Shown one piece after another: positions 4,715 to 42,006 of a stretch of 44,717 bases of DNA. The notes beneath the pieces are model-generated. The model was not told the origin of the DNA. It saw only the letters and a program-made list of their open reading frames with translations, and ran no database searches. Where the stretch lies: the IMG/VR virus record IMGVR_UViG_3300037423_001098, positions 1-44,717 of that record, one strand, 5' to 3'. Numbering within the stretch: the stretch's first letter is position 1; each line of letters begins with the position of its first letter. Position numbers and translations under genes: made by a program. This DNA is from a virus (Duplodnaviria; Caudoviricetes).

Positions 4715-4800
4715 GGGGCGCGCCCTTCGGGCCGGGCTTTCGTCCCTTCGGGATCGAGCCGCTGCGCGTCTCGCCGGTTCCCGCTTCAATCCCTCGCGCG
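4715..4800 (-). repeat. dispersed structured element, copy B
   Basis: Minus strand GCGCGAGGGAT..CGAGACGCGCAGCGGCTCG..AGCCCGGCCCGAAGGGCGCGC; same fold as other copies. Confidence 0.85.
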
Positions 4801-4849
4801 AGCTTGTGCTCGTGATTGGCGCAGCGCTTGCGCTTTGGTTCGTAAGCCG

Positions 4850-5107
4850 GTGAACCGCGCCGCGCTTCCCAACTGGCCGCGCTTGATGGGCGTCGACCTC
4901 GCCTCCGCCTATCTTGGGCTGAGCACGACGACGCTGCGCCAGAAAGGCCCCGCGCCGAAGGAATACGGGAAGCGCCGCCTCTATGACCGCATCGACCTAG
5001 ACAGGTGGGCGGATCGGCTTGGCGGACAGCCTTTGGGTGTGGCAGAACAAAAGGCGGAAGAGCGCGATGTGGAGCGCCGATTCCTGGAGCAAAGGAAGCG
5101 GGCATGA
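4850..5107 (+). CDS. excisionase-like HTH protein
   Basis: WPRLM..ASAYLGLSTTT..RRLYDRIDLDRWAD; upstream of integrase. Confidence 0.75.
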   Translation: MNRAALPNWPRLMGVDLASAYLGLSTTTLRQKGPAPKEYGKRRLYDRIDLDRWADRLGGQPLGVAEQKAEERDVERRFLEQRKRA

Positions 5108-5295
5108 ACGTCACATTCTATGGAGGGCCGAAGGATGGACAGGTCATGGCATTTGCGCATGGCGACATCGTTACATTTCAGGCGGGGCCGCCAGTGATCG
5201 ACTTTTCGGTTCCGACTGTTGAACCGATCCGATACGAAACGCACCTCTACCGTCGTTCGCTCAAAACACCCTCAATCTTTGTCTATCAGCCATGA
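5104..5295 (+). CDS. hypothetical protein (FYGGPKDGQ)
   Basis: ATGA overlaps at both ends. Confidence 0.65.
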   Translation: MNVTFYGGPKDGQVMAFAHGDIVTFQAGPPVIDFSVPTVEPIRYETHLYRRSLKTPSIFVYQP

Positions 5296-6293
5296 CGGAA
5301 ACCCGCCTCCCCTTCACCTATGTCATCGGCGGCAAATACTGGCGCTTCCGCCGTGGCGCTCTCAAGGCCGCCCTTCCCGGAAAACCGGGCGATGCCGCGT
5401 TCCACGCTCGCTACGCCGAGCTGCTGGCATTATCCGAGCGCAAAGCGCCGGAGCCGGATCGGGAGAGTTTCGCGTGGCTTGTCGCCCGCTACCGCAAGAG
5501 CGCCGAGTTCAATGCGCTCCGGCCCCTCACCCGCCTCGATTACGACAAGACGCTCGATCTGGTTGTGGCGGAGCTTGGCGAGCAGCCGTTCGCCCTGACC
5601 ACCGCGCCGATGATTAAGCGGGTCCGTGACGATCACGCGGCGACCCCGCGCAAGGCCCACAAGCTGCGCCAGATGCTATCCAGGCTCTATTCGTGGGCCG
5701 GAGAGGAGGGGTTGACCGAGAACGGCCACAACCCCGCAGCCAAGATCAAGCGCCTCAAGGTGCGCGCCAAGGCGATCACGCCCTGGTCGGAAGATGAAAT
5801 CGCGCGGTTCATGGCCGCCGCGCCCCTGTGGCTTCAGACGCCGATCCTGCTGGCCCTCTATACGGGGCAGCGGCGCGAGGACGTGGTTCGGATGACGTGG
5901 GCAGACTACCAGGGGTCGATCATCCGCGTGCGCCAATCAAAGACAGGCGAACCGCTGGACATTGCGTGCCACAAGGTTCTGCGGTCGCACCTGTCATCTA
6001 TCCGAACGGCGTTCGGCGGTCCCATAGCGCGAAACGCCAAGGGCAAGCCGTTCACCGCCAATTCGCTCAGTCAGGCGATCCGCCGGCAGGTAGAGGCGAT
6101 TGATGGTTTCCCGCACGACCGCAGCATCCACGGGCTGCGCTACGCCGCCGCAGCTAGGCTTGACGAAGCCGGATGCACGCTCACCGAGGCGGTTGCGGTT
6201 CTGGGCCACCGCACCTATCAGATGGCGCACCGCTACATGGCGCAGCGCCGCGCTTCCGAGGCCGCAATGGCCCGTCAGGAGGTGCGGGGGTGA
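5292..6293 (+). CDS. int: tyrosine recombinase / phage integrase
   Basis: YTGQRRED (R), QSKTG (K), HGLR, LGH...Y catalytic set. Confidence 0.95.
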   Translation: MTETRLPFTYVIGGKYWRFRRGALKAALPGKPGDAAFHARYAELLALSERKAPEPDRESFAWLVARYRKSAEFNALRPLTRLDYDKTLDLVVAELGEQPFALTTAPMIKRVRDDHAATPRKAHKLRQMLSRLYSWAGEEGLTENGHNPAAKIKRLKVRAKAITPWSEDEIARFMAAAPLWLQTPILLALYTGQRREDVVRMTWADYQGSIIRVRQSKTGEPLDIACHKVLRSHLSSIRTAFGGPIARNAKGKPFTANSLSQAIRRQVEAIDGFPHDRSIHGLRYAAAARLDEAGCTLTEAVAVLGHRTYQMAHRYMAQRRASEAAMARQEVRG

Positions 6294-6347
6294 ACCGTGA
6301 ACGAACCGCGAAACTGCTAAAACGCACAGGACTCGCGGTGCTAAAAT

Positions 6348-6387
6348 GGCCCGATGGCGGAGTGGTTACGCAGAGGACTGCAAATCC
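6348..6387 (+). other. attP core: 5' half of tRNA-Cys(GCA)
   Basis: GGCCCGATGGCGGAGTGGTTACGCAGAGGACTGCAAATCC gives acceptor 5' strand, D arm and GCA anticodon arm with no T arm after it; directly downstream of int; TGCTAA repeats at 6315, 6339, 6472 may be arm sites. Confidence 0.8.
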
Positions 6388-6477
6388 GCTTCCGCTGGCG
6401 CATTTCCGCGATAGTTTGCTGGTTTCACCGTCTGTTCCGCACATAGCTTATCAAGGGCTTATGCGGGCGAGTGCTAA

Positions 6478-6563
6478 CCGCGCAAGGGATACCCGCCGAA
6501 TGGTGGAGACGCGCAGCGGCTCCATGCGAAGCACGGGTAGCCCGGTCCCGTAGGGATGCGCCC
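6478..6563 (+). repeat. dispersed structured element, copy A
   Basis: CGCAAGGGATACCC..GGAGACGCGCAGCGGCTCC..GGGTAGCCCGGTCCCGTAGGGATGCG. Confidence 0.85.
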
Positions 6564-6588
6564 AAAACCAGTCGTCAGGAGGTGTGAA

Positions 6589-7023
6589 GTGAAAGAGATA
6601 CCGATCATTGCAGACAGGTTCTGGTCGAAGGTCGATAGGCGCGGCCCGGACGAATGTTGGCACTGGAACGGTTGCCGTGTTGCCAGGGGGTATGGCCGCT
6701 TCAAGTTCCGTGGGCGGGACGCTCCAGCCCATCGCGTAGCGTGGGAACTGTCGAACGATCAGGAATTTCCGCCAGGGATGCTCGCTTGCCACAAGTGCGA
6801 CAACCCGAGCTGCGTCAACCCCGCGCACGTATGGCCTGGAACGCCGGCTGACAACACACGCGATATGATGGCGAAGGGCAGGCACCACTATCAACGGGAT
6901 CGTTGCCTTCGTGGGCACTTGTATGAGGGCCAAAGGCCGCACCCGTCCGATCCCGGAAAACGATGCCTCATTTGCCAGAGGATGAAGATGCGAGAGCGCC
7001 GCGCGAATGGCGCGAAGGGTTGA
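6589..7023 (+). CDS. HNH endonuclease
   Basis: RFWSKVD..ECWHW..GYGRF..AHRVAW..CHKCDNPSCVNPAH..DNTRDM; AGGAGG RBS before GTG 6589. Confidence 0.9.
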   Translation: MKEIPIIADRFWSKVDRRGPDECWHWNGCRVARGYGRFKFRGRDAPAHRVAWELSNDQEFPPGMLACHKCDNPSCVNPAHVWPGTPADNTRDMMAKGRHHYQRDRCLRGHLYEGQRPHPSDPGKRCLICQRMKMRERRANGAKG

Positions 7024-7035
7024 GGAGAAAGCGAG

Positions 7036-7287
7036 ATGCAAGAGTTGTCCATCGTGGAGAAGCTGGAGCGCAACCACGGCACTGACGTCATGGGCGAAGC
7101 ACTGCTGTGCAACCCCGACGGCCCCGAAGCCGCCGCGATCATCAAGGAGCTGGTGGCTGCGCTGGACGAGGTTTGTGCAAGCAGCATTCGTCCTGGCTCT
7201 CGATACAAAGAGCGATTGGCCCGCGAATACGAGCGCATCCGGCGCATCGCCCGCGCCGCCCTCTCTCGCGCACAGGTGCGTCCGTGA
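7036..7287 (+). CDS. hypothetical protein
   Basis: GAGGAG RBS; NPDGPEAAAII. Confidence 0.65.
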   Translation: MQELSIVEKLERNHGTDVMGEALLCNPDGPEAAAIIKELVAALDEVCASSIRPGSRYKERLAREYERIRRIARAALSRAQVRP

Positions 7288-7604
7288 GCCGCGAAAGCAC
7301 GGATATGGTGGAGCGGGTTGCGCGGGCGATGTGGCGCAAGCAGTCCGCAGCCGCATGGGAAGCGGGAATCTACGAGCGCGATCAATTCCGCGCGTTCGCC
7401 CAAGCCGCCCTCGAAGCATCCCATCATGCAGAGCTTGTGGAGGCTCTGGACCCATTTGCGAGGGTCGCGCGACTTAATGACGCTGCGGGACTCGATGCTT
7501 CCGACGAGCGCCCATGCCGGGATTTCTTTCCGGGCATGTGGCCAACGCTAGGTGACTGTCGCCGAGCTGCCGCAATTATCGCCAAGATCGGAGGTGAAGC
7601 ATGA
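7284..7604 (+). CDS. hypothetical protein
   Basis: GTGA overlap; MVERVARAM motif. Confidence 0.65.
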   Translation: MSRESTDMVERVARAMWRKQSAAAWEAGIYERDQFRAFAQAALEASHHAELVEALDPFARVARLNDAAGLDASDERPCRDFFPGMWPTLGDCRRAAAIIAKIGGEA

Positions 7605-7744
7605 GACTGTGGTTCGCAATTCCCTTCGGTGCTGCGATGCTCAGGTGGCCACTGGTCGCAGAGTGGTTCGTGCTTAGCTGCCTGGTGCTGGCGGTGATCT
7701 TTGGAAGCATCGCTGCCGTGCGCGTGATCGGAGGTGGCCAATGA
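7601..7744 (+). CDS. 47-aa membrane protein
   Basis: GGAGG RBS; MRLWFAIPFG...VLSCLVLAVIFGSIAAV; ATGA overlaps. Confidence 0.55.
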   Translation: MRLWFAIPFGAAMLRWPLVAEWFVLSCLVLAVIFGSIAAVRVIGGGQ

Positions 7745-8031
7745 CCGCCTTCAGACTCTGGCGAAAACGCACGATCCCGCGCGTCGTTGTGACCGCGACC
7801 GTCGAGGCGTTCAAATGCGATAATCCGAACCACACGAAGGGGTGCGGGTTGGGCTGGCGGCTCATCCCCTCTTCTGAGGAAGAGGCGCACACCTGGATCG
7901 CGTCGATCGGATCGGACGGCCTCGTGCTGTGGCAATGCAGGTCAACGGAAGGCACGTCGCGGGAAACGGCGACGAAAGCCATGCTCGACCGGCTTGCGGA
8001 AGGAGTCGAGATTAGGTGGGTGCAGCCGTGA
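7741..8031 (+). CDS. hypothetical protein
   Basis: Translationally coupled ORF. Confidence 0.6.
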   Translation: MTAFRLWRKRTIPRVVVTATVEAFKCDNPNHTKGCGLGWRLIPSSEEEAHTWIASIGSDGLVLWQCRSTEGTSRETATKAMLDRLAEGVEIRWVQP

Positions 8032-8252
8032 GCAAGGAGGAGATGGTGGAGCGCGAACTGCCGCCGAATTATGATTGGAGGCGCGGTTACTATTCCGCCG
8101 CCGACGAGCTGATGAATTTTATCAACGCGCTGGACAGTAGCGAAATGTCAGGGCGCGAAGTCCGGTCGGCGATCTACGGCAAAGCACTCGAAATGCGACC
8201 GCCAGAGACCGCCCAACCCCCACGATCAGAACACAAGGGAAGCATCCGATGA
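8028..8252 (+). CDS. hypothetical protein
   Basis: GTGA/ATGA coupling. Confidence 0.6.
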   Translation: MSKEEMVERELPPNYDWRRGYYSAADELMNFINALDSSEMSGREVRSAIYGKALEMRPPETAQPPRSEHKGSIR

Positions 8253-8743
8253 ATGAGGAAGTGAAGGCGTGTGCGAACACCGATCGCGAACTCTGGCGTG
8301 AGCGTGAAGGCGACTACTACGCCAATTCGATCCATGTCACTGAGCACGGCGGTGTCGGCATCAATGTCGGCGGCCACGTTATCGTCAAACCGCTCACAGA
8401 CTGGCACGCGCTTGCCCGCACCCCCGCCTCATGCTCACCCGATGTGGTCGCTTTGCGGGAGAGATTGTTGGCAAAGGTGGCGTCACTAGAAGCTGACGAC
8501 GACGATGCGCTCATGTTCGCGGATGAGCTGGCAGGCGAGTTACGGCAAGCCGCCGACGCTCTCGAATCAATGATGCGTCGAGTAGATGCGATGGAGGTCA
8601 ACTGGGAGGAGCTTGCCATCCAGCATGGGCAGCAAGTCACAGTGACATTCAAGGACAAAGCGGATGCGTTCGCGCTATTCAACGAACTAAAAGCCCGCGC
8701 AGCTCTTTCCGATGGCATAGAACAGAAGAGTGATGCCGACTGA
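8249..8743 (+). CDS. hypothetical protein (NTDRELWRE motif)
   Basis: Coupled ORF. Confidence 0.65.
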   Translation: MNEEVKACANTDRELWREREGDYYANSIHVTEHGGVGINVGGHVIVKPLTDWHALARTPASCSPDVVALRERLLAKVASLEADDDDALMFADELAGELRQAADALESMMRRVDAMEVNWEELAIQHGQQVTVTFKDKADAFALFNELKARAALSDGIEQKSDAD

Positions 8744-8768
8744 TGGTGATTGGTTTTGGAGCTGTTAA

Positions 8769-8828
8769 CCCGCTACCCATGAACGGAACCAATCTTCGTT
8801 GTTTCCGCCCTTCGGGTGGGTATCGGGG
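8769..8828 (-). repeat. dispersed structured element, truncated copy F
   Basis: Minus strand CCCGATACCCACCCGAAGGGCGGAAAC..GGTTCCGTTCATGGGTAGCGGG; close to copy D but lacks the last hairpin. Confidence 0.75.
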
Positions 8829-8844
8829 CTAAAGGAGAAATAGG

Positions 8845-8988
8845 ATGCCGTGGATCGCAACCGAGCTAGACGAGGGATGGGACGTTCCGGCGGACGATGA
8901 TTTCATGGATAGCGACGAGAGCGACAACTGTTGCGAAGCGCCGAGCATGGGAATCGACGGAACCTGCCTCAATTGCGGGCAGAATTAG
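8845..8988 (+). CDS. 47-aa acidic Cys-rich protein
   Basis: AAGGAG RBS; MPWIATELDEGWDVPADDDFMDSDESDNCCEAPSMGIDGTCLNCGQN. Confidence 0.55.
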   Translation: MPWIATELDEGWDVPADDDFMDSDESDNCCEAPSMGIDGTCLNCGQN

Positions 8989-8990
8989 CA

Positions 8991-9269
8991 ATGCCCGATA
9001 ACAGGGAAAGGCTGGTGGAGTTGGCGGAGCGGCTGGAGTCTGTCGTTGCGGGCGATCTGCAGTCGGGGCGCGCGGGCGAGGGAACTGTGGCGCTACTGTC
9101 CGCCGCGAACGAACTGCGGCGCAGGACCAGGAACGCGCTAGACGGGCCAATCGCAGAGGCGGTCGCAGCGGGAATGAGCCTCCGGTCTGCTGCAGCCTCG
9201 TTCGGCGTCACACTCGGTCATGTTCGCGGCGCGGTAGCTCGTTCCCGCTCCCACGATAGCCGAGACTGA
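8991..9269 (+). CDS. hypothetical protein with possible C-terminal HTH
   Basis: GMSLRSAAASFGVTLGHVR; last gene of the + arm. Confidence 0.6.
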   Translation: MPDNRERLVELAERLESVVAGDLQSGRAGEGTVALLSAANELRRRTRNALDGPIAEAVAAGMSLRSAAASFGVTLGHVRGAVARSRSHDSRD

Positions 9270-9288
9270 CCGAACCCGCTAAGCGGCC

Positions 9289-9462
9289 CTAGCCCTTCTT
9301 CGCCTTCTTCGCCGCCAGTATAAGCAGCGCGGCAATCTCCAGCGCATCGTTGGGCGTAATTTCCGTCCCGAGGCATCCGCGATTGGCCCACAAGCTCATG
9401 CGGATTGTTCCGAGGTCTGCGCTGACGACAACCTGACGACCGCCGGAGAGGTCAACGGTCAT
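9289..9462 (-). CDS. 57-aa hypothetical protein
   Basis: MTVDLSGGRQVVV...ITPNDALEIAALLILAAKKAKKG; ATG immediately follows element copy C. Confidence 0.5.
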   Translation of the reverse strand: MTVDLSGGRQVVVSADLGTIRMSLWANRGCLGTEITPNDALEIAALLILAAKKAKKG

Positions 9463-9549
9463 GGGCGCATCCCTTCGGGACCGGGCTTGGCAGTCCTGAG
9501 GGACCGGAGCATTCGCGTCTCCGCGCTTCGCGTGCCATCCGTTGCGCGG
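9463..9549 (-). repeat. dispersed structured element, copy C
   Basis: Minus strand GCGCAACGGATGGCACGCGAAGCGCGGAGAC..CTCC..TGCCAAGCCCGGTCCCGAAGGGATGCGC. Confidence 0.85.
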
Positions 9550-9577
9550 CGCTGCGAATTGTGATAGTTCAGCGCCG

Positions 9578-9730
9578 ATGTCTGAGTGGGCACAAATGAC
9601 CTCCGCTGAGAAGCGCGATCACTGGAACACCGCCAAGATGAAGGACGGTGAGTGCTGGGGTTGCGTGTCGGTGTCCGTTTGCCCGCGCCGGTCGTCGTGC
9701 CACCATTGGACGCTCCTGAGCAAACGCTGA
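9578..9730 (+). CDS. 50-aa Cys/His-rich hypothetical protein
   Basis: MSEWAQMTSAEKRDHWN..CWGC..C..CHH; just upstream of the tRNA. Confidence 0.4.
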   Translation: MSEWAQMTSAEKRDHWNTAKMKDGECWGCVSVSVCPRRSSCHHWTLLSKR

Positions 9731-9740
9731 CCCTTGGTTG

Positions 9741-9816
9741 GGGTCGGTAGCTCAATAGGTAGAGCGGTGGCCTTTTAAGCCGAGGGTTGCGAGTTCGAAT
9801 CTCGCCCGACCCACCA
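9741..9816 (+). tRNA. tRNA-Lys (anticodon UUU)
   Basis: GGGTCGG/CCGACCC acceptor, TAGCTCAATAGGTAGAGC D arm, loop CTTTTAA, GCGAG-TTCGAAT-CTCGC T arm, encoded CCA. Confidence 0.92.
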
Positions 9817-9820
9817 GCCG

Positions 9821-10546
9821 TCATGCCTTCACCCGCTTGCCCGACTGCCACGATCCACACCGCTGGCACTGAAGCCGCTGAATGAAACTCGCCTTGGTCC
9901 GCCGCACTCCCCGCGATTGCACCTGGTTCGACCCGCAGGAGCCGCAGGCGAGCGCTGGCGTCATTCCCATGTGCGGGTGATCGAACACATAGGCCCTCAC
10001 CCGCTCATAGACTTGCTCGGTCAGGTCCACGTCGCCGGCACAGTATCGCGCCATGCGCTTCTGCGCCTTCGCGTCACCGTCCATGACGGCCAGCCACATC
10101 TCCAGTCCGTCGTGCTTCACCTTGGACCCAAGACCGAGCAGCGGGGCAACATAGTCGAGCTTGTTGCAGATGAAGCCGAGCTTGCGGACGGCCTTGTAGA
10201 TGTCGAGTTGCGTGGGGGGTGGGGGCGGCGGCATATCGGCGATCAGGAACTCGCCGAGGAGCTTGGGAATGTCGAAGCTCGCGCCGTTGTAGGTCGCCAC
10301 AGCATCCGCCTCTGACAGATGCTCGTGAACGATGCGGAGCATTTCGGCGTGGCCGTGCTCCCAGTCGGAATAGACCCTGGTTCGCTTGCCTGCCCATTTG
10401 AGACCGACACAGATCACGCCGCCGTCGCGGAGAATCTGCTTGTGGCCGATGTGCTGGTCACGAATGCCGAAGCTGGCGATTATCGCGGGCTTGGTCTCGA
10501 TGTCGAGAAACAGGACGCGCGGTTCGTTTTCATTGGCAAAATCCAC
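9821..10546 (-). CDS. RNase H-like (DnaQ-fold) exonuclease with C-terminal Zn ribbon
   Basis: LFLDIET, YNGASFDIP, KLDY, YCAGDV; CGSC...CQRC. Confidence 0.85.
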   Translation of the reverse strand: MDFANENEPRVLFLDIETKPAIIASFGIRDQHIGHKQILRDGGVICVGLKWAGKRTRVYSDWEHGHAEMLRIVHEHLSEADAVATYNGASFDIPKLLGEFLIADMPPPPPPTQLDIYKAVRKLGFICNKLDYVAPLLGLGSKVKHDGLEMWLAVMDGDAKAQKRMARYCAGDVDLTEQVYERVRAYVFDHPHMGMTPALACGSCGSNQVQSRGVRRTKASFIQRLQCQRCGSWQSGKRVKA

Positions 10547-10571
10547 ATTGCGTCCCCCGCAATTGATCCGC

Positions 10572-11126
10572 TTACTTCTTCGGCCACACCTTCAGCACCT
10601 CGTCGTGCCATGTGCGCCATGCTTGGACCTCGGCTAGGAGCTGGTCGTGCTCTTCGGAGCGCTGGACGAGCCAGTTCCAGGGGACGGCGGACAGGTCTTG
10701 CCCGTCGTCTGGAGGCAGTGCAGGTCCGGCAGCATCGGGCTTGGCAGGGCGCGTTCCGTCACTGGAGGGGGCGGAAAGTCGGGGACAGACAGCCTTTCCG
10801 GGGCCTGACACGCTGAGGCCATGAGCATCAGCAGCAATGGCGCGGTTCTGTTCATCGGTCGCCTTTCTGAGTTTTTCGGACAGGGCTTCGTTGAGGTCCG
10901 TGATCTTGAGCGCGGCGGCCAACGCTGCGGCTTCGCGCTTCTGCTCTGCGACGAGCTGCTGTTGCCGGTGAGTGGCGACGGCTTTCCAGCGATTCACGCG
11001 CACCGTCTGGACGCCAGCGACGAGCAGCGCGGCGATCAGCAGCAATTGCCAGATGCTGAGCTTGCCGAGGAACGATAGCGCACTAGCGCCAATGCGCTGA
11101 ATGGCGGCCCAGATTGCGAGGGTCAT
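10572..11126 (-). CDS. Rz-like inner-membrane spanin
   Basis: N-terminal TM plus coiled coil; ATGA coupling at 11126; nested lipoprotein ORF. Confidence 0.7.
   Translation of the reverse strand: MTLAIWAAIQRIGASALSFLGKLSIWQLLLIAALLVAGVQTVRVNRWKAVATHRQQQLVAEQKREAAALAAALKITDLNEALSEKLRKATDEQNRAIAADAHGLSVSGPGKAVCPRLSAPSSDGTRPAKPDAAGPALPPDDGQDLSAVPWNWLVQRSEEHDQLLAEVQAWRTWHDEVLKVWPKK
10634..10855 (-). CDS. Rz1-like outer-membrane spanin lipoprotein nested in Rz
   Basis: MNRTAPLLLMLMASA-C lipobox, Pro-rich mature part, alternative frame inside Rz. Confidence 0.7.
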   Translation of the reverse strand: MNRTAPLLLMLMASACQAPERLSVPDFPPPPVTERALPSPMLPDLHCLQTTGKTCPPSPGTGSSSAPKSTTSS

Positions 11127-11275
11127 GCGCGCGACCGCATCAGGGCGGTTAGCGCGGGCCACGATAGCCCCGCGAACAGTCCGCGCCGCTTCATGTCCGC
11201 CAGCGCCTTGAGATCGTCAGCGTCGGCCAGCCCAAGGTCGGCAAATACGTTGCCGCAGCTACGCTCAACCTTCAT
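11123..11275 (-). CDS. 50-aa protein resembling the N-terminus of XRE antitoxins (xxGNVFADLG)
   Basis: MKVERSCGNVFADLGLADADDLKAL...; no HTH follows. Confidence 0.55.
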   Translation of the reverse strand: MKVERSCGNVFADLGLADADDLKALADMKRRGLFAGLSWPALTALMRSRA

Positions 11276-11308
11276 AGCGAAACCCTCTTGAATTGCAAGC
11301 GCTTTGAT

Positions 11309-11447
11309 GCTACGCAGGGTCCGGTTGCGGAGGTGAGAACACGCTCCTCACGCGCGCCCCTTAGCGGTGGGCGCACAGTAGGTCGGGACCAAAGCCGCTG
11401 TATTATCCCGACTGAAGAGATGCCGAGGTGGCGATCCGGCCCGCAGC
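11309..11447 (+). ncRNA. candidate structured RNA with kissing loops
   Basis: Closing stem, three internal hairpins, loop-loop complement TAGCGGT/GCCGCTG; family unknown. Confidence 0.45.
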
Positions 11448-11450
11448 CCA

Positions 11451-12729: not shown

Positions 12730-12847
12730 ATCAAGCCGCCCTCGCGAGTTGCGAACAAACGGCGAATCTGCTGGGGGCGAAAGGGCGGACCGAGGTGGCG
12801 ATGCAACGCCGCCCCGGCCCTGACCAAACGAGCGATTGGAGCGCCCG

Positions 12848-13402
12848 ATGGCTGAAAACGAATATACCCACGAAGTCTGGAAGCCGATACCCTTCGCGCC
12901 CGATTATGCGGCGAGCAGTTATGGTCGCATCCGCAGGGAAACACCGGGAAGAAGCCGCCTCGCGAGTATGGCCATCCCCGGAAGGATTCTGAGACCCGGC
13001 CCACAGGGCGAGTGGAACGGGTCCCGTCGGCGATACCTTGGCGTCCAGATCGTTTTCAACGGCAAGGCGCGCAAATGCAGCGTCCACAAGGCCGTCGCAT
13101 GGGCATTCCACGGACCGCCGCCGACAGCGCGGCATGTTGTCGCTCACAACGACGGAGATGGCCACAACAACCGTCCGGAGAATCTGCGATGGGCGACGCA
13201 GGCCGAAAACTTGGCAGATCGCTCCGTGCACGGCACGCACGACAGGGGCGAACGAAATGTCCAGTCCAAACTCACGGAGGACGACGTTCGCGCGATCAGG
13301 TTGTCCGCCCTTCCTGAAAAAGTGTTGGGGCTTCGCTATGGGGTTGCCGCGACAACTGTGGGTCGGATAAGGCGCCGCGAGCGCTGGGCGTGGCTGCCGT
13401 AA
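12848..13402 (+). CDS. NUMOD4-HNH homing endonuclease
   Basis: EVWKPIP..YAASSYGRIR (NUMOD4); VHKAVAWAFHG..AHNDGDGHNNRPENLRW; antisense inside the lysis cassette. Confidence 0.9.
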   Translation: MAENEYTHEVWKPIPFAPDYAASSYGRIRRETPGRSRLASMAIPGRILRPGPQGEWNGSRRRYLGVQIVFNGKARKCSVHKAVAWAFHGPPPTARHVVAHNDGDGHNNRPENLRWATQAENLADRSVHGTHDRGERNVQSKLTEDDVRAIRLSALPEKVLGLRYGVAATTVGRIRRRERWAWLP

Positions 13403-33340: not shown

Positions 33341-33430
33341 GCGCCCCTCCGTTTGCCGCTCCTCATCGAGGTGGGCGGTGTCCTTGGCTATTCGTCGTCG
33401 GATATCAGCGTGTCGGCGAGCGTGTGTAAC

Positions 33431-33655: not shown

Positions 33656-34262
33656 CGACCACCCTCCGGTGAATAATCCCCCCGGCGCAGCGTCACCTCA
33701 GCGTGCGACAATGCGCTTCTGTGAGTGCGTTGGTGGCTGGCCGGGAGGGCTGCCGCGCTGTGTCTTGGTGTCTGCGGCAGAAAGTTACGCTGCCTCTTTG
33801 TGCAGCAGATGCTGAAGCGACTTCCAGCTCCTGCCGCGCCAGATGTGCTGGACTGTCCAGCGACTGACGCCGAGAGCTTTCGCAATTGTCTTTTGGCCTT
33901 CGCCATTGTTCAGGCGAGCAATGATCTCTAGCGCCGTCGCCTCATCCGTGGTCCACGGCTTAAGTTGCGTGCCGTGCAGGGTGCGGTCGGACTGATTTTC
34001 TGATCGCGTGGCCCAGCGCAGGTTCTCTGGCCGGTTGTTATCCCTCGTGCCGTCGCCATGCGCGACCTCATGCCTGTCAGATGGCGGTAAGCCATGGAAG
34101 GCAAGGCACACCGCGCGATGGACAGAAAGGACTCGCCTCTTGCCCTTCACGCACAAATTGACTGTCGGATAACAGTTAACCGGAAAAGGAATCAGGACTG
34201 GCAATTATATACTTGACAAAACACAGGAGGGGGCTATGGTGGTTCGCAACAGGAGCCCACCG

Positions 34263-35174: not shown

Positions 35175-35275
35175 ATTCTTTGAGCCTCCACCTTGGTGGG
35201 GCGAGCGGCGGAAGCGCTGGACTCGCGGGTAGCGTCGGCTACTCTCAAGACGCTCGGTTCGCGTGGGAGCACGAC

Positions 35276-35785: not shown

Positions 35786-35910
35786 CTCCGCCTCCGCGCT
35801 TCCTTCGACCGCCGCTCTATCTCTTCATTGCTGATCGGGGGCGTTTTGAGCGCGCGCCGCACCAGTTGCTCGAAGTTGTCTGTCTTCGGCTTGTCTGAAT
35901 CGTCTCTCAT
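35782..35910 (-). CDS. IS passenger: 42-aa peptide
   Basis: MRDDSDKPKTDNFEQLVRRALKTPPISNEEIERRSKEARRRS; ATGA coupled. Confidence 0.5.
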   Translation of the reverse strand: MRDDSDKPKTDNFEQLVRRALKTPPISNEEIERRSKEARRRS

Positions 35911-36494
35911 GCGACCACATCCGCTCCCCAGACATACGGCATGAGTCCGCCGCGCCGATACTGCATGAGCCGCTTAATGTTGGCCTCAACGTTGGGATGG
36001 TCCTGGTTGGCTTCATACCACTCTACCACGGCGCGGTTCATGTGTTTGCAGAACTCGGTGGTGCTGTAGAGAAACGCGTCATCGGCTTTGCCCATGCCGA
36101 TGACGGTCGAAACGGATTTCGGCAGAAAGACAATCCTCGCGACGCTGTGCTTCAAGTCGCCGAAACGACCGTTGTGAAGCACGCCGCAGCGGATCGAATA
36201 GAGATCATCCGGAGTCGCGTAGTCGAAGCCGGCCTTCAGATTATCTTTGCACCATTGTTTGTAGCGCTGCGGAGAAGTGCGCCCGTCATCAGATATGAGC
36301 GATACACAAATATCAGGCAGCGCTACCGCCATTGATATGGCGATCAGGTCAAGCCCGTTATCGGCGGCAATGTTGATTTGAGTCAGAATGTTAAAGAGGG
36401 GCGATCGAAGCTCCGACCCGATCTCTCTCCCACCCCCGAGCGGCTCCCAAGAGGTCGAAGAGGTCGACTTCGGTGTAGGCGTTCCCGCACTCAT
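35907..36494 (-). CDS. IS passenger: HEPN-like protein (start uncertain)
   Basis: ALPDIC..Y..W..LYSIRCGVLHNG contains an RxxxxH motif. Confidence 0.6.
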   Translation of the reverse strand: MSAGTPTPKSTSSTSWEPLGGGREIGSELRSPLFNILTQINIAADNGLDLIAISMAVALPDICVSLISDDGRTSPQRYKQWCKDNLKAGFDYATPDDLYSIRCGVLHNGRFGDLKHSVARIVFLPKSVSTVIGMGKADDAFLYSTTEFCKHMNRAVVEWYEANQDHPNVEANIKRLMQYRRGGLMPYVWGADVVA

Positions 36495-36630
36495 TGTAGG
36501 CCCTTATCACAACGCGGCCCTCACCCGTAAGCCAAAGCTCTACGGGATCACCATCAGTTCGCTCCCGCACCGCATCCAGCGTTGCGAGCTTAGTAAGCGC
36601 TTTGGTTAGAAGCCGGCCTGTCTCTTTCAC
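36391..36630 (-). CDS. IS passenger: hypothetical protein
   Basis: RVVIRAYNECGNAYTEVDLFDLL; starts just inside the right TIR. Confidence 0.5.
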   Translation of the reverse strand: MKETGRLLTKALTKLATLDAVRERTDGDPVELWLTGEGRVVIRAYNECGNAYTEVDLFDLLGAARGWERDRVGASIAPL

Positions 36631-36831
36631 TCATGCGACTCAATTGATGTTTTGTAAAGTATATAATTGCCTCAGGACTTTCGACCGCTGCCATCGGCAG
36701 TTGCGGCCCATCCTCACGATCCGAGCGACTGACCGAACGCGGCCCAGGCTGCTCGCTTCGTATTTTCCTTCATATCCAGGGATGCTGCGCCAGACCTCGC
36801 CTTCTTCAGGCGAAATTCTGAGCATTGCAGG

Positions 36832-36860
36832 AGACTACCATAATTCAGGGGCCGCGTCAA
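36832..36860 (-). promoter_or_regulatory. sigma70-type promoter, likely late promoter
   Basis: TTGACG-17 bp-TAGTCT with TG extension; predicted start near ATG 36825 (leaderless). Confidence 0.6.
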
Positions 36861-36878
36861 GTCCCTACGCGACCAACG

Positions 36879-37013
36879 CTACCGCCCGCAATTGGTTCCG
36901 ACAAACGCATCGCACCGCTTGCACCGGCTAATGTCCCACACCTTGCGGCCGTCGCATTGCCGACACACCCATTCGCCGACCCTGTGGCCAAACACTAGAC
37001 AGATGAACTTCAC
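36879..37013 (-). CDS. 44-aa Cys-rich protein (DUF1660-like)
   Basis: MKFICLVFGHRV..CRQC..CKRC; GTGA overlap. Confidence 0.6.
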   Translation of the reverse strand: MKFICLVFGHRVGEWVCRQCDGRKVWDISRCKRCDAFVGTNCGR

Positions 37014-37627
37014 GCCGCCCTCCTCTCATACCGCCCGCGCATCCCCGCATCGTAAAGCGCGAACAGCCCGCGAATGCTCGCCTGCAAAAGCTGGTAGTCG
37101 TTGCCCGTCGGAAAGCGGAAGAACGCGGGCTTGCGATTGCGCTTCAGCAATGCCTCGGACACAATCGAAACCACCCACGGTGCGTTTTCATCCCCACTGG
37201 GCCAGCTTCCGACAATCGGGTCGATCAGCAGCGAATAGAGCGCGTGCCGCTCGTATCCGGTCAGGCAATCGTCCATGCGGTCCATGCGCTCGCTGTGCCT
37301 CGGCTCACGCTCCCGCGCCTTGTCCATGCGCTCGTATCCGCCGGCCTTGAACCCCTGCTTGCGCAGGAGCGTCACGAACCAGTCGCGCCACTCCCTGCCG
37401 ACATTGCGAAGCTCAAGGCTGTCGATCGGGTAGCCGTCGAGCAGCCCGAGCGCGTGGAGCTGGCCGATCCCGTCGCACACGTCCTGGTCGATATTTCCAT
37501 CTGAGACGAACGAGAACATTTCCCTTCTCCTCGCAATGTGTTCGGGCGGCGGAGTGAAGCGCCCGCGCTCAAGCGTTCCGTCGAGCTTTCGCGGTCCTGA
37601 CTTCCTCGGCCTTCCACGCTTCGCCAT
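37010..37627 (-). CDS. putative late transcription regulator
   Basis: AT-hook-like KRGRPRK start; Q-like position before the late promoter. Confidence 0.55.
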   Translation of the reverse strand: MAKRGRPRKSGPRKLDGTLERGRFTPPPEHIARRREMFSFVSDGNIDQDVCDGIGQLHALGLLDGYPIDSLELRNVGREWRDWFVTLLRKQGFKAGGYERMDKAREREPRHSERMDRMDDCLTGYERHALYSLLIDPIVGSWPSGDENAPWVVSIVSEALLKRNRKPAFFRFPTGNDYQLLQASIRGLFALYDAGMRGRYERRAA

Positions 37628-37765
37628 CTCACTTCCCCCGCTTGGAACCTATCTCACCGGACTTGCGTTGAACGCATTGCAACGAGACCCACCCAAAGTA
37701 GATGTTCCTGAAGACTCCCCCGCTCTTCTGGAGATGTTGAAATGGGTGGGTCTCGGATGATTCAT

Positions 37766-37854
37766 GGCGCGTCCCTGACGGGACCGCGCTACCCATGAAC
37801 CAAGCCGCAATCTTCGTTCCGTCTTGGCCCTTCGGGTGGGTATCGCTTGCGCGG
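37766..37854 (-). repeat. dispersed structured element, copy D
   Basis: Minus strand GCGCAAGCGATACCCACCCGAAGGGCCAAGAC..GGCTTGGTTCATGGGTAGCGCGGTCCCGTCAGGGACGCGC; begins right after the MTase stop. Confidence 0.85.
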
Positions 37855-38703
37855 TCATGTCGTGACCACATCACCGAACATGCCCGCCTCTGCGGCAATC
37901 CTGCGCCGCGCTATTTCAGCATACTCTTCGTTGAGTTCGATCAAGATTGCATGGCGTCCAAGCCGATCAGCCACCAACCCCGTCGTTCCCGCGCCGCCGA
38001 ATGGATCCAAAACCACCCCCCCCTCCGGGCATCCCGCGAGAATGCACGGCTCGATCAGTTCGGGGGGATAGGTTGCAAAGTGCGCTTCGGCGAACGATTG
38101 CGTGGGGACGGTCCAAACCGAACGCTTCTTCCGCTTGTCACGAATGGCACGGAACGGCTGCTGAATCTTCTTGTCCGTGTTTCCCGCCCGTTGGCCGCTG
38201 AACGCCCCCTTGGGCCTGCCCGTGCGTCCGCTCTGCGTGTTGTAAATCGCGTCCTCTTCGATCGCCGCCCCGTCAAAATAGTAGATTGGCGATTTGGCTA
38301 GCAGGAAGATCTGCTCGTGAGCGTTCGTGCAGCGATCCTTGACGCTCTCCGGCATGGGATTTGGCTTCGCCCAGATGATCTCTTGGCGAAGGGTCCAGCC
38401 ATCAGCCTGAAGCGCGAATGCCAATCTCCAAGGAATGCCGAGAAGCTGTTTCTTGGATCCGTTTGTGTCACCGATGTTCAACCACAGCGTCCCGTCATCT
38501 CGCAGCACGCGCCGCACCTCGCGGAACACCTCAACGATTCTGGCGACAAACTCGTCTGGTGTCGGCTCAAGCCCGATCTGCGCCTCATGCCCGTAGTCCC
38601 TGAGCTGGAAATACGGCGGGCTAGTCACGCAGCAGTGGATAGACCCGCTTTCGATCTCCGAAAGGCGCTCGCGGCAATCGCCGACAATGATTCTCGTTGT
38701 CAT
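37855..38703 (-). CDS. N4-cytosine/N6-adenine DNA methyltransferase (beta class)
   Basis: TSPPY before DPFGGAGTT; start MTTRIIVGDC at 38703. Confidence 0.92.
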   Translation of the reverse strand: MTTRIIVGDCRERLSEIESGSIHCCVTSPPYFQLRDYGHEAQIGLEPTPDEFVARIVEVFREVRRVLRDDGTLWLNIGDTNGSKKQLLGIPWRLAFALQADGWTLRQEIIWAKPNPMPESVKDRCTNAHEQIFLLAKSPIYYFDGAAIEEDAIYNTQSGRTGRPKGAFSGQRAGNTDKKIQQPFRAIRDKRKKRSVWTVPTQSFAEAHFATYPPELIEPCILAGCPEGGVVLDPFGGAGTTGLVADRLGRHAILIELNEEYAEIARRRIAAEAGMFGDVVTT

Positions 38704-38764
38704 GCCGCGCCTATGCAATGTATCTGCCGCCTGGACAGATCTGAAATTCGGGTAGTTTCGCCAG

Positions 38765-38841
38765 CGAAAGTGATCGAAGCCGACAGGCGGAAACGCGAAG
38801 CGGTTCCGTGAGGAGCACGAGAGCGCGGTCCGAAGGGTTCG
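38765..38841 (+). repeat. dispersed structured element, copy G
   Basis: CGAAAGTGATCGAAGCCGACAGGCGGAAACGCGAAGCGGTTCCG..CGAGAGCGCGGTCCGAAGGGTTCG. Confidence 0.75.
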
Positions 38842-38875
38842 ACCGTATTCCGGTATCCGATGGTGACGGGCTGCG

Positions 38876-39274
38876 TCATGCCGCACCAATCGACTTGATG
38901 AGCTTCCGAACTTCGGCGGCGCTCACATACTCGGGCTCGGCGGAGTCAAGGCGTGGCGCATGGCGATTGGCAAACGCCTGCCGTTCCCACTCAAGCTGCT
39001 GAACGCGATGTTTCCAGCTCGCTTCCGTGGTCTCGAAAATCACCGGCACGATCTCGGATGCAAACCGGCACCGCTTGCGCGCCTCCTTGCATCCCACGGC
39101 CAGGAGATCGGCGGGAATGCCGCTGAGCGTCGCGCGGGCGACTTTCACCCACGCATCGCGATCCTCGGCGCTCATTCCGGTCGGCGCCACCAGCGTCAGG
39201 CAGGCCATCAGCTCGGCAGTTCCCGCCGCCGCGCTTGCCGTGCGAACCTTGGCTTCCGCCCTAGAAAGGCTCAT
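38876..39274 (-). CDS. replication-associated protein (gpP-position, loader-like)
   Basis: Follows the initiator; LSGIPADLL..CRFASEIVP; start may be 39352. Confidence 0.55.
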   Translation of the reverse strand: MSLSRAEAKVRTASAAAGTAELMACLTLVAPTGMSAEDRDAWVKVARATLSGIPADLLAVGCKEARKRCRFASEIVPVIFETTEASWKHRVQQLEWERQAFANRHAPRLDSAEPEYVSAAEVRKLIKSIGAA

Positions 39275-39848
39275 CGGGATCGAGGCCGGCTGTGGCGAGG
39301 CGATAAGCTGCCTGAGACTTTCCGATTCCGTTTGCTTGTCCGTGTCGCTCATCGTGCCGCCTCGTGATCCAATTTCGCCAAGCCTGATCCCAGTCGAGCT
39401 TTCGCCCCTTGCCGTTCTTGTCCTCGGCGTTCGCGGCCCATCGCCGGAACGACGCGAGTTCGTCGTCCAGGCAACCAGGCGGCCAAAGATCGACTTTCGC
39501 TAGGATCGGTGCTGGCAGAGGGCGCGGAACCCAATCCTCGGGCAGCCTGTGCCAAACGCCTCGCGCCCGTCTCACACACGGGATGGGATTAATTTCTTTA
39601 GGGGGTCTGGGGGACGTTTCTTTATCAAGGGAAACCCTGTCCGTGACATCGGCGTGACATGGTGTGACTTGTCCCGTGACATCGGCGGATTTTTCATGTT
39701 CCCGTTGCGCCCGCTTGCGATCCCTGTCCGCGTGACGGCGCGCTTCGAGACACGCTTGCGCGGCCTCAACTTCCTCGACGGCAAGCGCGATCATCTCGTG
39801 CGTCGCGCCGAGTTCGCCCATGCGCCTGACGAGGTTGGCAATGCTCAT
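39261..39848 (-). CDS. phage replication initiator-like protein
   Basis: DRDRKRAQRE linker, internal iterons, RLPEDWVP..F..W..KLDWDQAWRNWI C-terminal domain. Confidence 0.75.
   Translation of the reverse strand: MSIANLVRRMGELGATHEMIALAVEEVEAAQACLEARRHADRDRKRAQREHEKSADVTGQVTPCHADVTDRVSLDKETSPRPPKEINPIPCVRRARGVWHRLPEDWVPRPLPAPILAKVDLWPPGCLDDELASFRRWAANAEDKNGKGRKLDWDQAWRNWITRRHDERHGQANGIGKSQAAYRLATAGLDPDEPF
39585..39690. promoter_or_regulatory. putative replication origin (iterons plus AT-rich tract)
   Basis: CCGTGACATCGGCG at 39641 and 39674, further GTGAC repeats, next to ATTAATTTCTTTA and TTTCTTTATCAA. Confidence 0.65.
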
Positions 39849-40147
39849 GCCGCCAGCGCCCAGATTGCATCCCGCAGGCGCGCGGAGCCGTTCGCGGGAT
39901 CGCGCAGCGCAAGGATTGCATCGCGCAGCTTTGCCGAGCCGATTTCGGCCTCGCGCCGGAGCTGTTCATCTGTCGGCGGTAAGCCCATCCACTCGGCGCA
40001 AGTGCGCGCGGGATACGGGAAGCCGCCAACCGCAGCGCGTGGCGGATCGAGCTTGGCGCGATACTTCAGGCCCCACAGGCGCGCGGTGGCGCAGCGTGAA
40101 GCCTGGTCCGCCTGCATGAGCGCAATCTGTTTTGCGGTCTGTGCCAT
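39845..40147 (-). CDS. hypothetical protein
   Basis: Coupled to the initiator; GSAKLRDAI/GSARLRDAI internal duplication. Confidence 0.55.
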   Translation of the reverse strand: MAQTAKQIALMQADQASRCATARLWGLKYRAKLDPPRAAVGGFPYPARTCAEWMGLPPTDEQLRREAEIGSAKLRDAILALRDPANGSARLRDAIWALAA

Positions 40148-40155
40148 CGCGGATT

Positions 40156-40746
40156 CTATGCTGCCTGGCATTCGCGGTCGCCAACCGATTGTTGGCGGTT
40201 ATCCCCAGAATACCGGCACTCGCTTGAAACAATTGACGAAATGATCGTTTTTACTAAGTGCCTGAACGCTTCGTCCTCGCCCATAATCCGCTCGACTGTG
40301 CGGACGGCGTGAATGACGGTCGTGTGGTCGCGATTGCCGAAGTGGCGTCCAATGTCGGGCAGGGATCGCGGCGTCAGGCGCTTGCAAATATACATCGCAA
40401 CCTGACGCGGACGGGCGACCTCTCGCGAACGGCGCGCGGACACCATCTCGTCCACGGGAATGCGAAACTCCGCCGCCGTGATGCGCTTGATGCGCGCGAT
40501 CGGCGTCTCGAACTCGGGCGGAACGGGAAGCTCGGAATTGAGGATAGCAGCCGCACCCTCACCCTTGGCGCTAAGACTGTAATATGGCGGCCAGCGCTTT
40601 TCTGGCGGCATATCCAGGTTCAGGAAACCAAGCTCCCACAGGCGTTTCAGCACGCACCCGTTGACGCCCAGGTCGGGCGCTGTAACCGACCTGTTGCCGA
40701 TGCTCGCCAGCACGCTCGTCATGCTCGGCGTGAGGTCCGCAATCAT
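40156..40746 (-). CDS. protein with DnaA C-terminal DNA-binding domain
   Basis: SARRSREVARPRQVAMYICKRLTPRSLPDIGRHFGNRDHTTVIHAVRTV. Confidence 0.88.
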   Translation of the reverse strand: MIADLTPSMTSVLASIGNRSVTAPDLGVNGCVLKRLWELGFLNLDMPPEKRWPPYYSLSAKGEGAAAILNSELPVPPEFETPIARIKRITAAEFRIPVDEMVSARRSREVARPRQVAMYICKRLTPRSLPDIGRHFGNRDHTTVIHAVRTVERIMGEDEAFRHLVKTIISSIVSSECRYSGDNRQQSVGDRECQAA

Positions 40747-40964
40747 TTTCCTTCTCCAATGTCATCGCTGATTGTTGCCGGCGGAATCTTGGTGAGCTGT
40801 TCCCGCTCGAACCGCTCAAGCTCTTCGGCCCACAGCTTGCGGACCTTTGCTTCGGTGGAATCGTATGTGGTCGCCCACCTGGAGACGTTAATCTCCGGCC
40901 GCTTTGTGCCGTTTGAGATGGCAAGCTGGATTGCGGGACGGAGGGTGAGGGAGAGGTGGTTCAT
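40743..40964 (-). CDS. hypothetical protein
   Basis: ATGA coupling at both ends. Confidence 0.55.
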   Translation of the reverse strand: MNHLSLTLRPAIQLAISNGTKRPEINVSRWATTYDSTEAKVRKLWAEELERFEREQLTKIPPATISDDIGEGK

Positions 40965-41314
40965 TGGCCGATCACCACGACAACGCGGGCATCCTTCACC
41001 GGCTCGGCGAAGTGATAGCTCGGCAGGAAGCGGCGGTCGTTGACCTTGAGGGCGTCGGCAATGCCGTCCCAATAGGGCTTCATGCGGTTTGGAAAATTCG
41101 TGCGATCCCCGCGTCTGTCTGGCGGGTAGAACGTCACCGAAATGCGAATGTCGCCCTCTAGGTCGTATCCGCCATCTCCCCACGCCGCCGTGGTCGCGAT
41201 CCGCGCCCATTCACGATGTTTGGCGACTGCGCCAGTCTTGGCTCGCCAATGACCCGTGTTGTGGCCAGACAGTGCGCCGACCGGGAATGGCAGTTCGATG
41301 ACGACGCCGCTCAT
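40961..41314 (-). CDS. rusA: RusA-like Holliday junction resolvase
   Basis: IELPFP, FYPPDRRGDRTN..KPYWDGIADALKVNDRRF. Confidence 0.75.
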   Translation of the reverse strand: MSGVVIELPFPVGALSGHNTGHWRAKTGAVAKHREWARIATTAAWGDGGYDLEGDIRISVTFYPPDRRGDRTNFPNRMKPYWDGIADALKVNDRRFLPSYHFAEPVKDARVVVVIGQ

Positions 41315-42006
41315 GCCGCCTCCGCATTCATGGAGGCGAGGATTGCGATGTTCAGCAGCGCGTCACGGAACGCGGGCGGCGTCTCGAGCGCCTCCTGTTT
41401 TTTCATCACGGGCAACTTGCGGTCAAAGAGTCCGATTTGGTGCGAACCCTTGCACGCTCTCCAGTTCAGCGGCGGGGGCGGGCAGTTCCCGTGATAAAGC
41501 AGCCACGTCCGCTTGCGGGCGCGATGTCCATACGCGGCCTGGTCGACCTCGGTCGTCCAATCGCCGTCGATGTTCTGCTGCCAATATCCTCGAGACGGTT
41601 CTGGGATGCCGTGAAAGCGGAAGGCTCGGCTTTCGGCGGGATGCTCGAGAACGCCGCCCCATGTGCGAACCGCCGCTAGGGCTGACGCAAAGCAACCGCC
41701 GTCCTCGTTGATCTTGAAGCCCCAACGCTTGTGATTGACGGCGGAAAGCTGATGCCAACGGTCGCACGGCGGATGTGCCACGACCGGATATGGGCCAGCA
41801 TACAGCCGCGCGTCGCGCCGCTCATCCCAAGGATCGACGCCCGGAATACCGAAGTAACAACCGCCGGTTTCGACGTAGAGCGCCGCAACGCGCAATGGGA
41901 TTGAAGCCGGAACGGGCGAGACAACTTGTTGGCTCGACGGCGTAGCCGCGAAAGCCCGGTCGGCGGAGCCGATGCGCCCAGACTGATTGTCCCCCGCCCT
42001 ACTCAT
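41311..42006 (-). CDS. phage Dcm-like (C5 cytosine MTase-like) protein with element-derived N-terminus
   Basis: VAALYV, DARLYAGPYPVVAHPPC, GGVLEHP, GHRARKRTWL. Confidence 0.65.
   Translation of the reverse strand: MSRAGDNQSGRIGSADRAFAATPSSQQVVSPVPASIPLRVAALYVETGGCYFGIPGVDPWDERRDARLYAGPYPVVAHPPCDRWHQLSAVNHKRWGFKINEDGGCFASALAAVRTWGGVLEHPAESRAFRFHGIPEPSRGYWQQNIDGDWTTEVDQAAYGHRARKRTWLLYHGNCPPPPLNWRACKGSHQIGLFDRKLPVMKKQEALETPPAFRDALLNIAILASMNAEAA
41890..41979 (+). repeat. dispersed structured element, copy E
   Basis: GCGCAATGGGATTGAAGCCGGAACGGGCGAGAC..GGCTCGACGGCGTAGCCGCGAAAGCCCGGTCGGCGGAGCCGATGCGCCC. Confidence 0.85.

Follow-up and report, generated by a model that had tools for sequence, protein, structure and literature searches.

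The attC sites of integrons are recombined as folded single-stranded DNA (ssDNA) by a tyrosine recombinase, the minus-strand origins of filamentous phages lie 5′ of rep on the virion strand, and the ssiA and ssiB single-strand initiation (ssi) signals of RSF1010 form an inverted pair. Here we describe a dispersed element that recalls these sites. It was noticed in IMG/VR virus record IMGVR_UViG_3300037423_001098, a whole temperate soil phage record of 44,717 nucleotides (nt; 44.7 kb, hereafter the window), when a reading of the letters alone, the original prediction, listed seven stretches conserved in fold rather than in sequence. We find that these stretches belong to a family that spans mobile DNA of Proteobacteria (plasmids, inoviruses and tailed phages), and that its fold and its link to ssDNA are well supported. 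Tentatively, we read the element as an exchange site for the shuffling of cassettes.

Like attC, the element keeps its fold over its sequence, would act as ssDNA and lies at gene borders, and stop codons may fall in its outer stem. An attC site, however, is one imperfect hairpin with R and L boxes and extrahelical bases, whereas the element has two junctions and three to four hairpins. Likewise, attC sites stand in direct orientation, one per cassette, whereas the elements of tailed phages alternate in strand and bracket their cargo from both sides. The elements would moreover be translated as N- and C-terminal tails, with neither a linked integron integrase nor an Rfam attC-like match, and the integrase of the window adjoins a tRNA-type phage attachment site (attP). 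Although it would likewise be read by its shape, the element is not an attC site.

In the F plasmid, the element lies in the same 550-nt repeat as Frpo1 and Frpo2 (ssiD), on the same strand and upstream of the leading operons, and in F, R46, R388, pAOVO01 and pKPNEU28_3 it lies upstream of leading genes on what is probably the transferred (template) strand. In contrast to Frpo, it is located outside ssiD, has a GC content of ∼70%, lacks an AT-rich promoter stem and also occurs in phages; ColIb-P9 (ssi1-3), which has Frpo homologues, gave no element match. The conserved upstream (CUP) repeats of IncN plasmids and the direct repeats of R388 resemble it in that the element is part of leading-region repeats, but the R46 element belongs to separate repeats of 63–124 nt, which lie upstream of those of the CUP type (300 nt). 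It has been proposed that a 5.2-kb CUP region was lost when repeats recombined (PMC3490853). Single-strand origins and priming signals, such as the M13 minus origin, the phiX174 primosome assembly site (PAS), the G4-type sites, RSF1010 ssiA/ssiB and the single-strand origins (sso) of rolling-circle plasmids, share with the element a folded ssDNA with mini-hairpins and, in inoviruses, a place 5′ of rep on the virion strand. Two covariance models of the family, R1 and R2, gave no match in phiX174 or ColE1, although a family model need not detect a functional analogue; kinship with the phiX174 PAS was rejected on this basis. We know of no single-strand origin with up to 19 copies or with in-frame cargo.

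The PeSL (early promoter stem-loop) sequences of T4-type phages are also dispersed intergenic repeats of hyperplastic phage regions that mark module exchange, but they are units of a σ70 promoter and a terminator (PMC2839356). The elements, in contrast, are GC-rich, keep fold over sequence and are found on either strand, and open reading frames (ORFs) run through them; inspection of the consensus, rather than a promoter scan, showed neither AT-rich hexamers nor a T tract. Repetitive extragenic palindromic (REP) sequences, their doublets (REPINs) with RAYT, and the ends of IS200/IS605 likewise form inverted doublets of hairpin DNA and are ssDNA substrates. The elements differ from them in being about three times longer, branched and divergent within a genome, with gene-sized inserts and no linked HUH transposase. 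By these tests, the element is not Frpo, PAS or REPIN, and it is probably not a PeSL. No description of the motif was found in the full-text literature, a coverage outside which most older subscription papers and the Weinberg 2017 supplement fall, and four short motifs gave no match in the six files covered of the Fremin 2023 supplement; a candidate-RNA listing in either supplement is possible. The element thus appears to be an undescribed structured DNA signal in textbook elements (F, R46, R388 and the Pf phages). It bears on how hosts handle incoming single-stranded plasmid and inovirus DNA, and on how the accessory genes and domains of phages turn mosaic at sharp borders.

Fold and distribution of the element

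All seven stretches were found in the places and on the strands originally predicted, with the stems, the AT/AG and AC/GG features, the GG linker and the C-GNA-G loops as described. The element is ∼90 nt long and folds as a three-way junction of an outer stem (P1), a stem P2/P3 with a fixed A-G mismatch and, behind a GG linker, a last hairpin; its inner junction carries two to three GNA-capped hairpins. The most fixed features are the GCG/CGC of the outer stem, an unpaired A, two A-G mismatches, the GG linker and the GNA loops, while the number and length of the arms vary among copies. Long insertions in one arm occur in loci L034 (2997-3157), L068 (702-846) and L092 (20077-20212), one of which nests a second inner module, showing that arm length is free and that the junction core is kept.

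For model R1, six copies of the window were aligned with 12 from elsewhere, and the structure was set by hand. The model scored the six training copies at 56.7-88.5 bits, which is partly by construction. The one untrained window copy (8770-8826) ranked next with 17.6 bits (E 0.086), and an eighth window copy was ruled out because the next-best match reached 14.4 bits. The covariation of stems noted in the window recurred in two larger alignments: 95.1% of cells were paired in 83 distinct copies, with double changes in 25 of 29 pairs, and 94.8% in 113 distinct copies aligned from a different seed, with double changes in 26 of 29, both alignments being fitted to the model and leaning towards it. 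None of 500 shuffles scored as high, and slid controls had ≤ 46% paired cells. Rfam 15 (including PAGEV, GEBRO, ARRPOF, DUF1874 and C4) gave no match at the seven copies, either at the gathering score or at E ≤ 10. The comparison of folding energies as ssDNA was mixed: three copies were clearly more stable than dinucleotide shuffles (z = −3.6, −5.2 and −3.9), while the other four were not (0.2 to −1.9). Hence, the case for the fold rests on covariation and not on folding energy.

The paired positions have a DNA-type signature. In 195 distinct copies, 5017 of 5348 paired cells were Watson-Crick, 58 (1%) were G-T and 38 were A-C; since both wobble types are scarce, neither strand is RNA-like in this respect. 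Triloops of all types closed 522 of 643 simple hairpins. GNA triloops accounted for 483 of the 643, 448 of these being C-GNA-G, next to 48 GNNA tetraloops, 10 GNRA and no UNCG; 93 loops were unclassified. Mini-hairpins of the GCGNAGC type are unusually stable in DNA and are found at the G4, St-1 and alpha3 origins and at ssiA (PMC13037366). Collectively, the DNA-like loops, the rare wobble, the position on particular strands described below and the lack of an Rfam match bear out the proposal of a structure-recognized ssDNA element outside the named families. The element is likely to fold only when its DNA is single-stranded, and we infer that the fold forms in vivo.

A search with a 22-nt pattern returned 25 viral loci and 58 loci in bacterial genomes, mostly of Alphaproteobacteria and Acidovorax; ∼15 of the 58 are chance pattern matches without a model match. 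The genes next to the elements are those of mobile elements, i.e. ParAB/RepB, ArdC, DUF2958, DUF3768, SSB, relaxase, Toprim, Rep_trans and Zot. As controls, 80 phage loci chosen by methyltransferase homology (best 61% identical) gave no element match, and 8 of 61 genomes of one host family matched with one to four copies each (a lower bound); the element is therefore not a housekeeping repeat. Same-strand (direct) arrays were seen only in plasmids and in clusters resembling integrative and conjugative elements (ICEs). Four ICE-like clusters of three same-strand copies each lie near 2.27, 5.47, 5.67 and 6.15 Mb of one chromosome (G079:C1), and have genes for Toprim, an AlkB-like protein and DUF5372 nearby.

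Arrangement and reading frame in tailed phages

Of 50 viral records chosen by a 17-nt seed, 42 matched, with up to 19 copies per genome, and a scan of 40 stretches from 22 records (7 whole, 15 partial) with R2 yielded 179 copies. In these records and the window, neighbouring copies < 5 kb apart alternated in strand in 107 of 151 pairs, compared with 80.8 ± 5.8 upon shuffling (0/5000). Divergent pairs within 600 nt, whose 5′ ends point inward, were about twice as frequent as expected (28 versus 13.4; 0/5000), whereas convergent pairs at the same distance were not enriched (16 versus 13.4).

Long inserts between the elements carry whole genes, e.g. the methyltransferase gene and the xis-int module of the window. 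Short inserts are frequently open frames without a start or stop of their own, and the ORF then runs from an outside ATG through the first element, the cargo and the second element. The length of open-frame inserts was a multiple of three in 28 of 34 cases (p 6e-9 against one-third, 1e-4 against one-half) as opposed to 5 of 26 closed inserts, and therefore both CGCG centres of an open insert lie at one codon phase. In addition, 44 of the 179 copies have a Shine-Dalgarno (SD)-like motif and an ATG immediately beyond the 3′ end, from which an antisense frame crosses the element; the other side gave 6 of 179 and random places 9.2 ± 2.9. None of 23 cargo peptides matched Pfam.

The window combines podovirus-type head and tail genes with an ERF/exonuclease/SSB/NinB recombination block, a tyrosine integrase, several HNH genes, a methyltransferase and a repressor pair, in a layout resembling that of Sphingopyxis phage VSN-002. 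Copy 1 (4715-4801, minus strand; 79.8 bits), between ninB and a xis-like gene, has a counterpart in the identical place and strand after ninB in VSN-002. It is the left member of a divergent pair around the xis-int module, the right member being copy 2 (6478-6564, plus strand; 88.5 bits), which follows int and attP and precedes an HNH gene. The cargo of this pair (4802-6477, plus strand) comprises the xis-like gene, a small ORF, the tyrosine integrase and attP; the 1.6-kb insert is 70% identical to that of a divergent pair in G030 (L312). Copies 5 (37764-37854, minus strand; 56.7 bits) and 6 (38762-38845, plus strand; 67.8 bits) form a second divergent pair, whose cargo (37855-38761, minus strand) is a complete DNA methyltransferase gene (phrog_67, E 3e-79) that occupies 95% of the 907-nt insert. 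Copy 5 begins at the very next base behind the methyltransferase stop codon, and copy 6 lies upstream of, and antisense to, the gene. A different methyltransferase is bracketed by elements in like manner in G052.

Copy 7 (41888-41980, plus strand; 69.1 bits) lies antisense within the 5′ end of an ORF (41311-42006, minus strand), the ATG of which is 26 nt outside the 3′ end of the copy and which reads through the element. The phrog_12600 domain of this ORF begins at residue 39, directly behind the element, such that read-through would supply an N-terminal tail as in the phage cassettes. Copy 4 (9462-9549, minus strand; 57.2 bits) adjoins with its 3′ end the ATG (9462) of a gene of 57 amino acids. 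Copy 3 (8769-8828, minus strand; 17.6 bits over model positions 9-66) is truncated: it lacks the last hairpin, as previously noted, and also the outer stem P1, while contigs of soil runs X1 and X3 extend beyond 8775 with a full last hairpin and P1 arm. That the copies keep to accessory and early regions was confirmed, as the R1 scan found none between 9550 and 37763 (lysis, tail and head genes), and the terminase-to-tail region of G050 and G052 was likewise free of copies. A leading-/lagging-strand rule around the putative window origin near 39.6 kb fitted only three of the seven copies and was rejected.

Mosaic borders at the elements

Among 340 distinct element contexts, 20 groups had only the 5′ flank in common and 8 only the 3′ flank. 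Specifically, L105/L313 and L109/L314 share the 5′ flank and the element body of window copy 2 to its 3′ end and differ in the 3′ flank; L105 has the 5′ flank of the window and the 3′ flank of L308. In L315, the 5′ flank and the CCGCG of copy 2 are kept and the element body is missing. In G050, two copies of a 225-nt cargo, 83% identical, are set in different outer flanks. Elsewhere, the domain encoded by this cargo occurs alone (82-95 amino acids), with element-type tails (P0003 and P0015), or joined, always at one and the same residue, to five different N-terminal parts. No more than weak hints came from the soil contigs, whose uncovered parts carry no weight: the end of an X1 contig falls at 37855, 38764-38841 is matched by an X1 contig that has a different 5′ flank, and X3 and X4 contigs join 41340 to 41889 with other DNA in between.

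We favour, at somewhat below an even chance, the reading that the element is a folded-ssDNA exchange site for cassette shuffling, recognized by a candidate host enzyme. Each element would fold on ssDNA, and the enzyme would break and rejoin DNA, or switch template, at the folded element, so that genes and protein domains between inverted pairs would be swapped as cassettes. Exchange would take place at the GCG/CGC of P1, where the centre of the frequent CGCG holds the same codon phase at both cargo ends. Frame-keeping cassettes would prevail because, in the manner of symmetric exons, they fit into other ORFs. The enzyme would probably be encoded by the host, because inoviruses, plasmids and tailed phages have no common candidate gene. 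If true, this would be a cassette system unlike integrons, with inverted, translated sites and frame-symmetric cargo. A wider version, in which one such site, read by a host enzyme, serves proteobacterial mobile elements at large, is more doubtful; it would allow exon shuffling at the DNA level in phages and remodelling of the plasmid leading region during transfer. Here, start-less and stop-less domains would be frame-symmetric cassettes between inverted sites that use start and stop signals outside, and swapped or fused cassettes would build the mosaic accessory proteins of temperate phages. Of the three functions originally considered, a recombination site (or cassette junction) is the one that our data favour; priming stays its main rival, and the data speak against a unit that is mobile by itself.

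Several observations weigh against an exchange site. No gene common to inoviruses, plasmids and tailed phages was found that could encode the recombinase. The breakpoints are spread, some at the 5′ core, some inside the element and some at its 3′ end, a pattern that might equally result if the repeats underwent ordinary recombination, homologous or homeologous; a single fixed crossover point was not supported, from few pairs and leaving out those among 29 unaligned matches. No empty back-to-back element pair was present among 59 divergent gaps (the smallest being 126 nt), no circular cassette was seen, and no inversion at the elements was detected in the contigs of four soil DNA runs, although contigs drop rare forms. 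Five element-less homologues of cargo domains, all < 50% identical, showed no CGCG scar at the junction, and L315 could have arisen by deletion instead of being an ancestral empty site. The inovirus element described below is single, strongly conserved and away from the provirus ends, which fits an essential replication signal better. Finally, many inovirus loci and some cassettes are related, and our counts overstate their independence.

Inoviruses, plasmids and rival explanations

Small Rep_trans inovirus-like replicons carry one full copy each. Of 23 such loci tested, 21 were informative, and in all of these the element lay on the rep/zot coding strand; it was just 5′ of rep in 19 of the 19 with a rep match. 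The element is thus located on the strand that is single-stranded in inoviruses. The replicons L005, L008, L010, L012, L016, L018, L019, L024 and L025 have, on the strand of the element and ∼80 nt 5′ of it, a second GC-rich hairpin of 41 nt that scores 20-23 bits. The unrelated Pf lineage also carries the element, with matches in 15 Pf-type records. In the Pf1 prophage, it scores 54 bits, lies on the coding strand and overlaps the end of PA0719, far from rep. The C-termini of PA0719 are reported to diverge among Pf prophages, and the published PA0719 mutant altered only the start of the gene (PMC12328805), so that this mutant is no test of the element.

Six reference plasmids chosen beforehand were scanned with the model. 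F carries two copies, R46 three and R388 two, all on the same strand within a plasmid, while ColIb-P9 and ColE1 gave no match and R751 a single weak one of 22.7 bits. Three plasmids taken from BLAST matches, pAOVO01, pKPNEU28_3 and pECL_B, gave five matches each on one strand, 3 of the 15 scoring < 30 bits. Judging from relaxase position and gene direction, the plasmid copies probably lie on the transferred strand. The element strand is the template for most leading-region genes but sense behind stbC in R46, which suggests that it is the transferred strand, and not the direction of the genes, that the element follows. The two F copies, one of which spans 58090-58174 of NC_002483, occupy the far edge of the Frpo repeat (550 nt), ∼470 nt upstream of where a gene starts; the repeats of F, R388 (533-nt) and R46 (124-nt) terminate at the 3′ end of the element. 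Since ssiD ends at positions 9268 and 14657 of L090 and the elements end at 9175 and 14563, a gap of ∼92 nt separates the published ssiD (PMC11541004, Suppl. Table 2) from the element, and identity of the element with ssiD/Frpo was rejected on these coordinates.

The strongest alternative, which we nevertheless consider unlikely, is that the element is a single-strand initiation signal of the sso/ssi type. A host priming machine, most plausibly RNA polymerase, would read the fold and prime the complementary strand towards the 5′ side of the element; the two members of a divergent pair would prime towards each other, so that the cargo between them would be copied out, with mosaic junctions as a by-product. 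The single virion-sense copy 5′ of rep, the recurrence of the element in the unrelated Pf lineage and the mini-hairpins of the G4, St-1 and alpha3 origins and of ssiA all speak for this explanation, as does the presence of the element in six MOBF plasmids as compared with its absence or weak match in ColIb-P9 and R751, both of which carry their own primase. With rifampicin, however, early conversion is abolished near ssp1a/ssp1b (Frpo) (bioRxiv 10.64898/2026.01.09.698686), which speaks against priming of the PriA or DnaG type at this place and leaves only priming by RNA polymerase. The ∼92-nt distance to ssiD and the lack of model matches in the phiX174 genome and ColE1 also count against priming. 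Nor does priming account for up to 19 alternating copies confined to accessory regions, or for frame-keeping inserts. If true, such a priming signal would be broad-host-range and common to plasmids and phages.

It is improbable that the element is a structural roadblock or protective ssDNA cap, which would stall complementary-strand synthesis or exonucleases 3′ of ssDNA promoters and genes, thereby prolonging early expression, and whose stalled ends would recombine without a dedicated enzyme. The position in F is consistent with such a role, as the element lies 3′ of the two Frpo copies on the probable transferred strand and would be the first of them that an incoming polymerase encounters; the spread breakpoints agree with template switching. 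An ssDNA stem-loop roadblock has indeed been reported for F, but at ssp2, a different site (bioRxiv 10.64898/2026.01.09.698686). Moreover, what a roadblock requires is stability; it has no need of a GG linker or of fixed A-G mismatches. In an inovirus, blocking the virion strand would interfere with synthesis of the replicative form.

Quite improbable, too, is a non-autonomous mobile DNA similar to REPINs or miniature inverted-repeat transposable elements (MITEs), moved as ssDNA by an unlinked HUH transposase and tolerated in genes when in frame. The many dispersed copies in inverted doublets, the ATGA that flanks window copy 5 on either side (93 nt apart and in frame), the element-less site in L315 and the high summed contig depth over elements in the soil runs would suit it. 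In contrast, the copies within one phage are divergent rather than near-identical, a consistent target duplication was not found, and the 149 neighbouring ORFs scanned included no HUH transposase. The fixed single position in inoviruses and the low occurrence in the host family (8 of 61 genomes, a lower bound) argue in the same direction; with one ambiguous element-less site, a REPIN/MITE assignment was rejected. Finally, a structured RNA (cis-regulator, antisense RNA or processing site) is very improbable, because the element, although it also folds stably as RNA and its 3′ end adjoins a ribosome-binding site or start codon in 42 of 179 copies, has prevailing GNA triloops, next to no GNRA or UNCG loops and wobble enrichment on neither strand, and is mostly antisense to genes in plasmids, sense in inoviruses and both in tailed phages (96 of 186 on the plus strand).

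Further observations on the window phage

Directly after the integrase gene, positions 6347-6387 match part of a tRNA-Cys gene; as X2 and X4 contigs run from this stretch into a full tRNA, it is probably the attP core. The window also has a tRNA gene of its own with anticodon UUU (Lys; 9741-9813, plus strand), on the strand opposite to the neighbouring genes, and a match to the Skipping-rope RNA (11323-11448, plus strand; 40.8 bits), which is above the gathering score and has a 43-nt insertion. Two 51-nt direct repeats (39854-39955; 73% alike) lie just upstream of the replication initiator ORF. A 27-nt (9-codon) tandem repeat of at least 13 copies, which is probably coding, runs across the record ends (44592-44717 and 1-405). 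Five HNH endonuclease genes or fragments were located at 3798-4208, 6556-7023, 12836-13402, 33785-34204 and 36640-36825, one of them directly after copy 2. Finally, phrog_1273, which has no Pfam match, is common to the window (740-1162), L273 (10554-11042) and L276 (18522-19145), the latter two being annotated high-copy phages, and is a candidate partner of the element.

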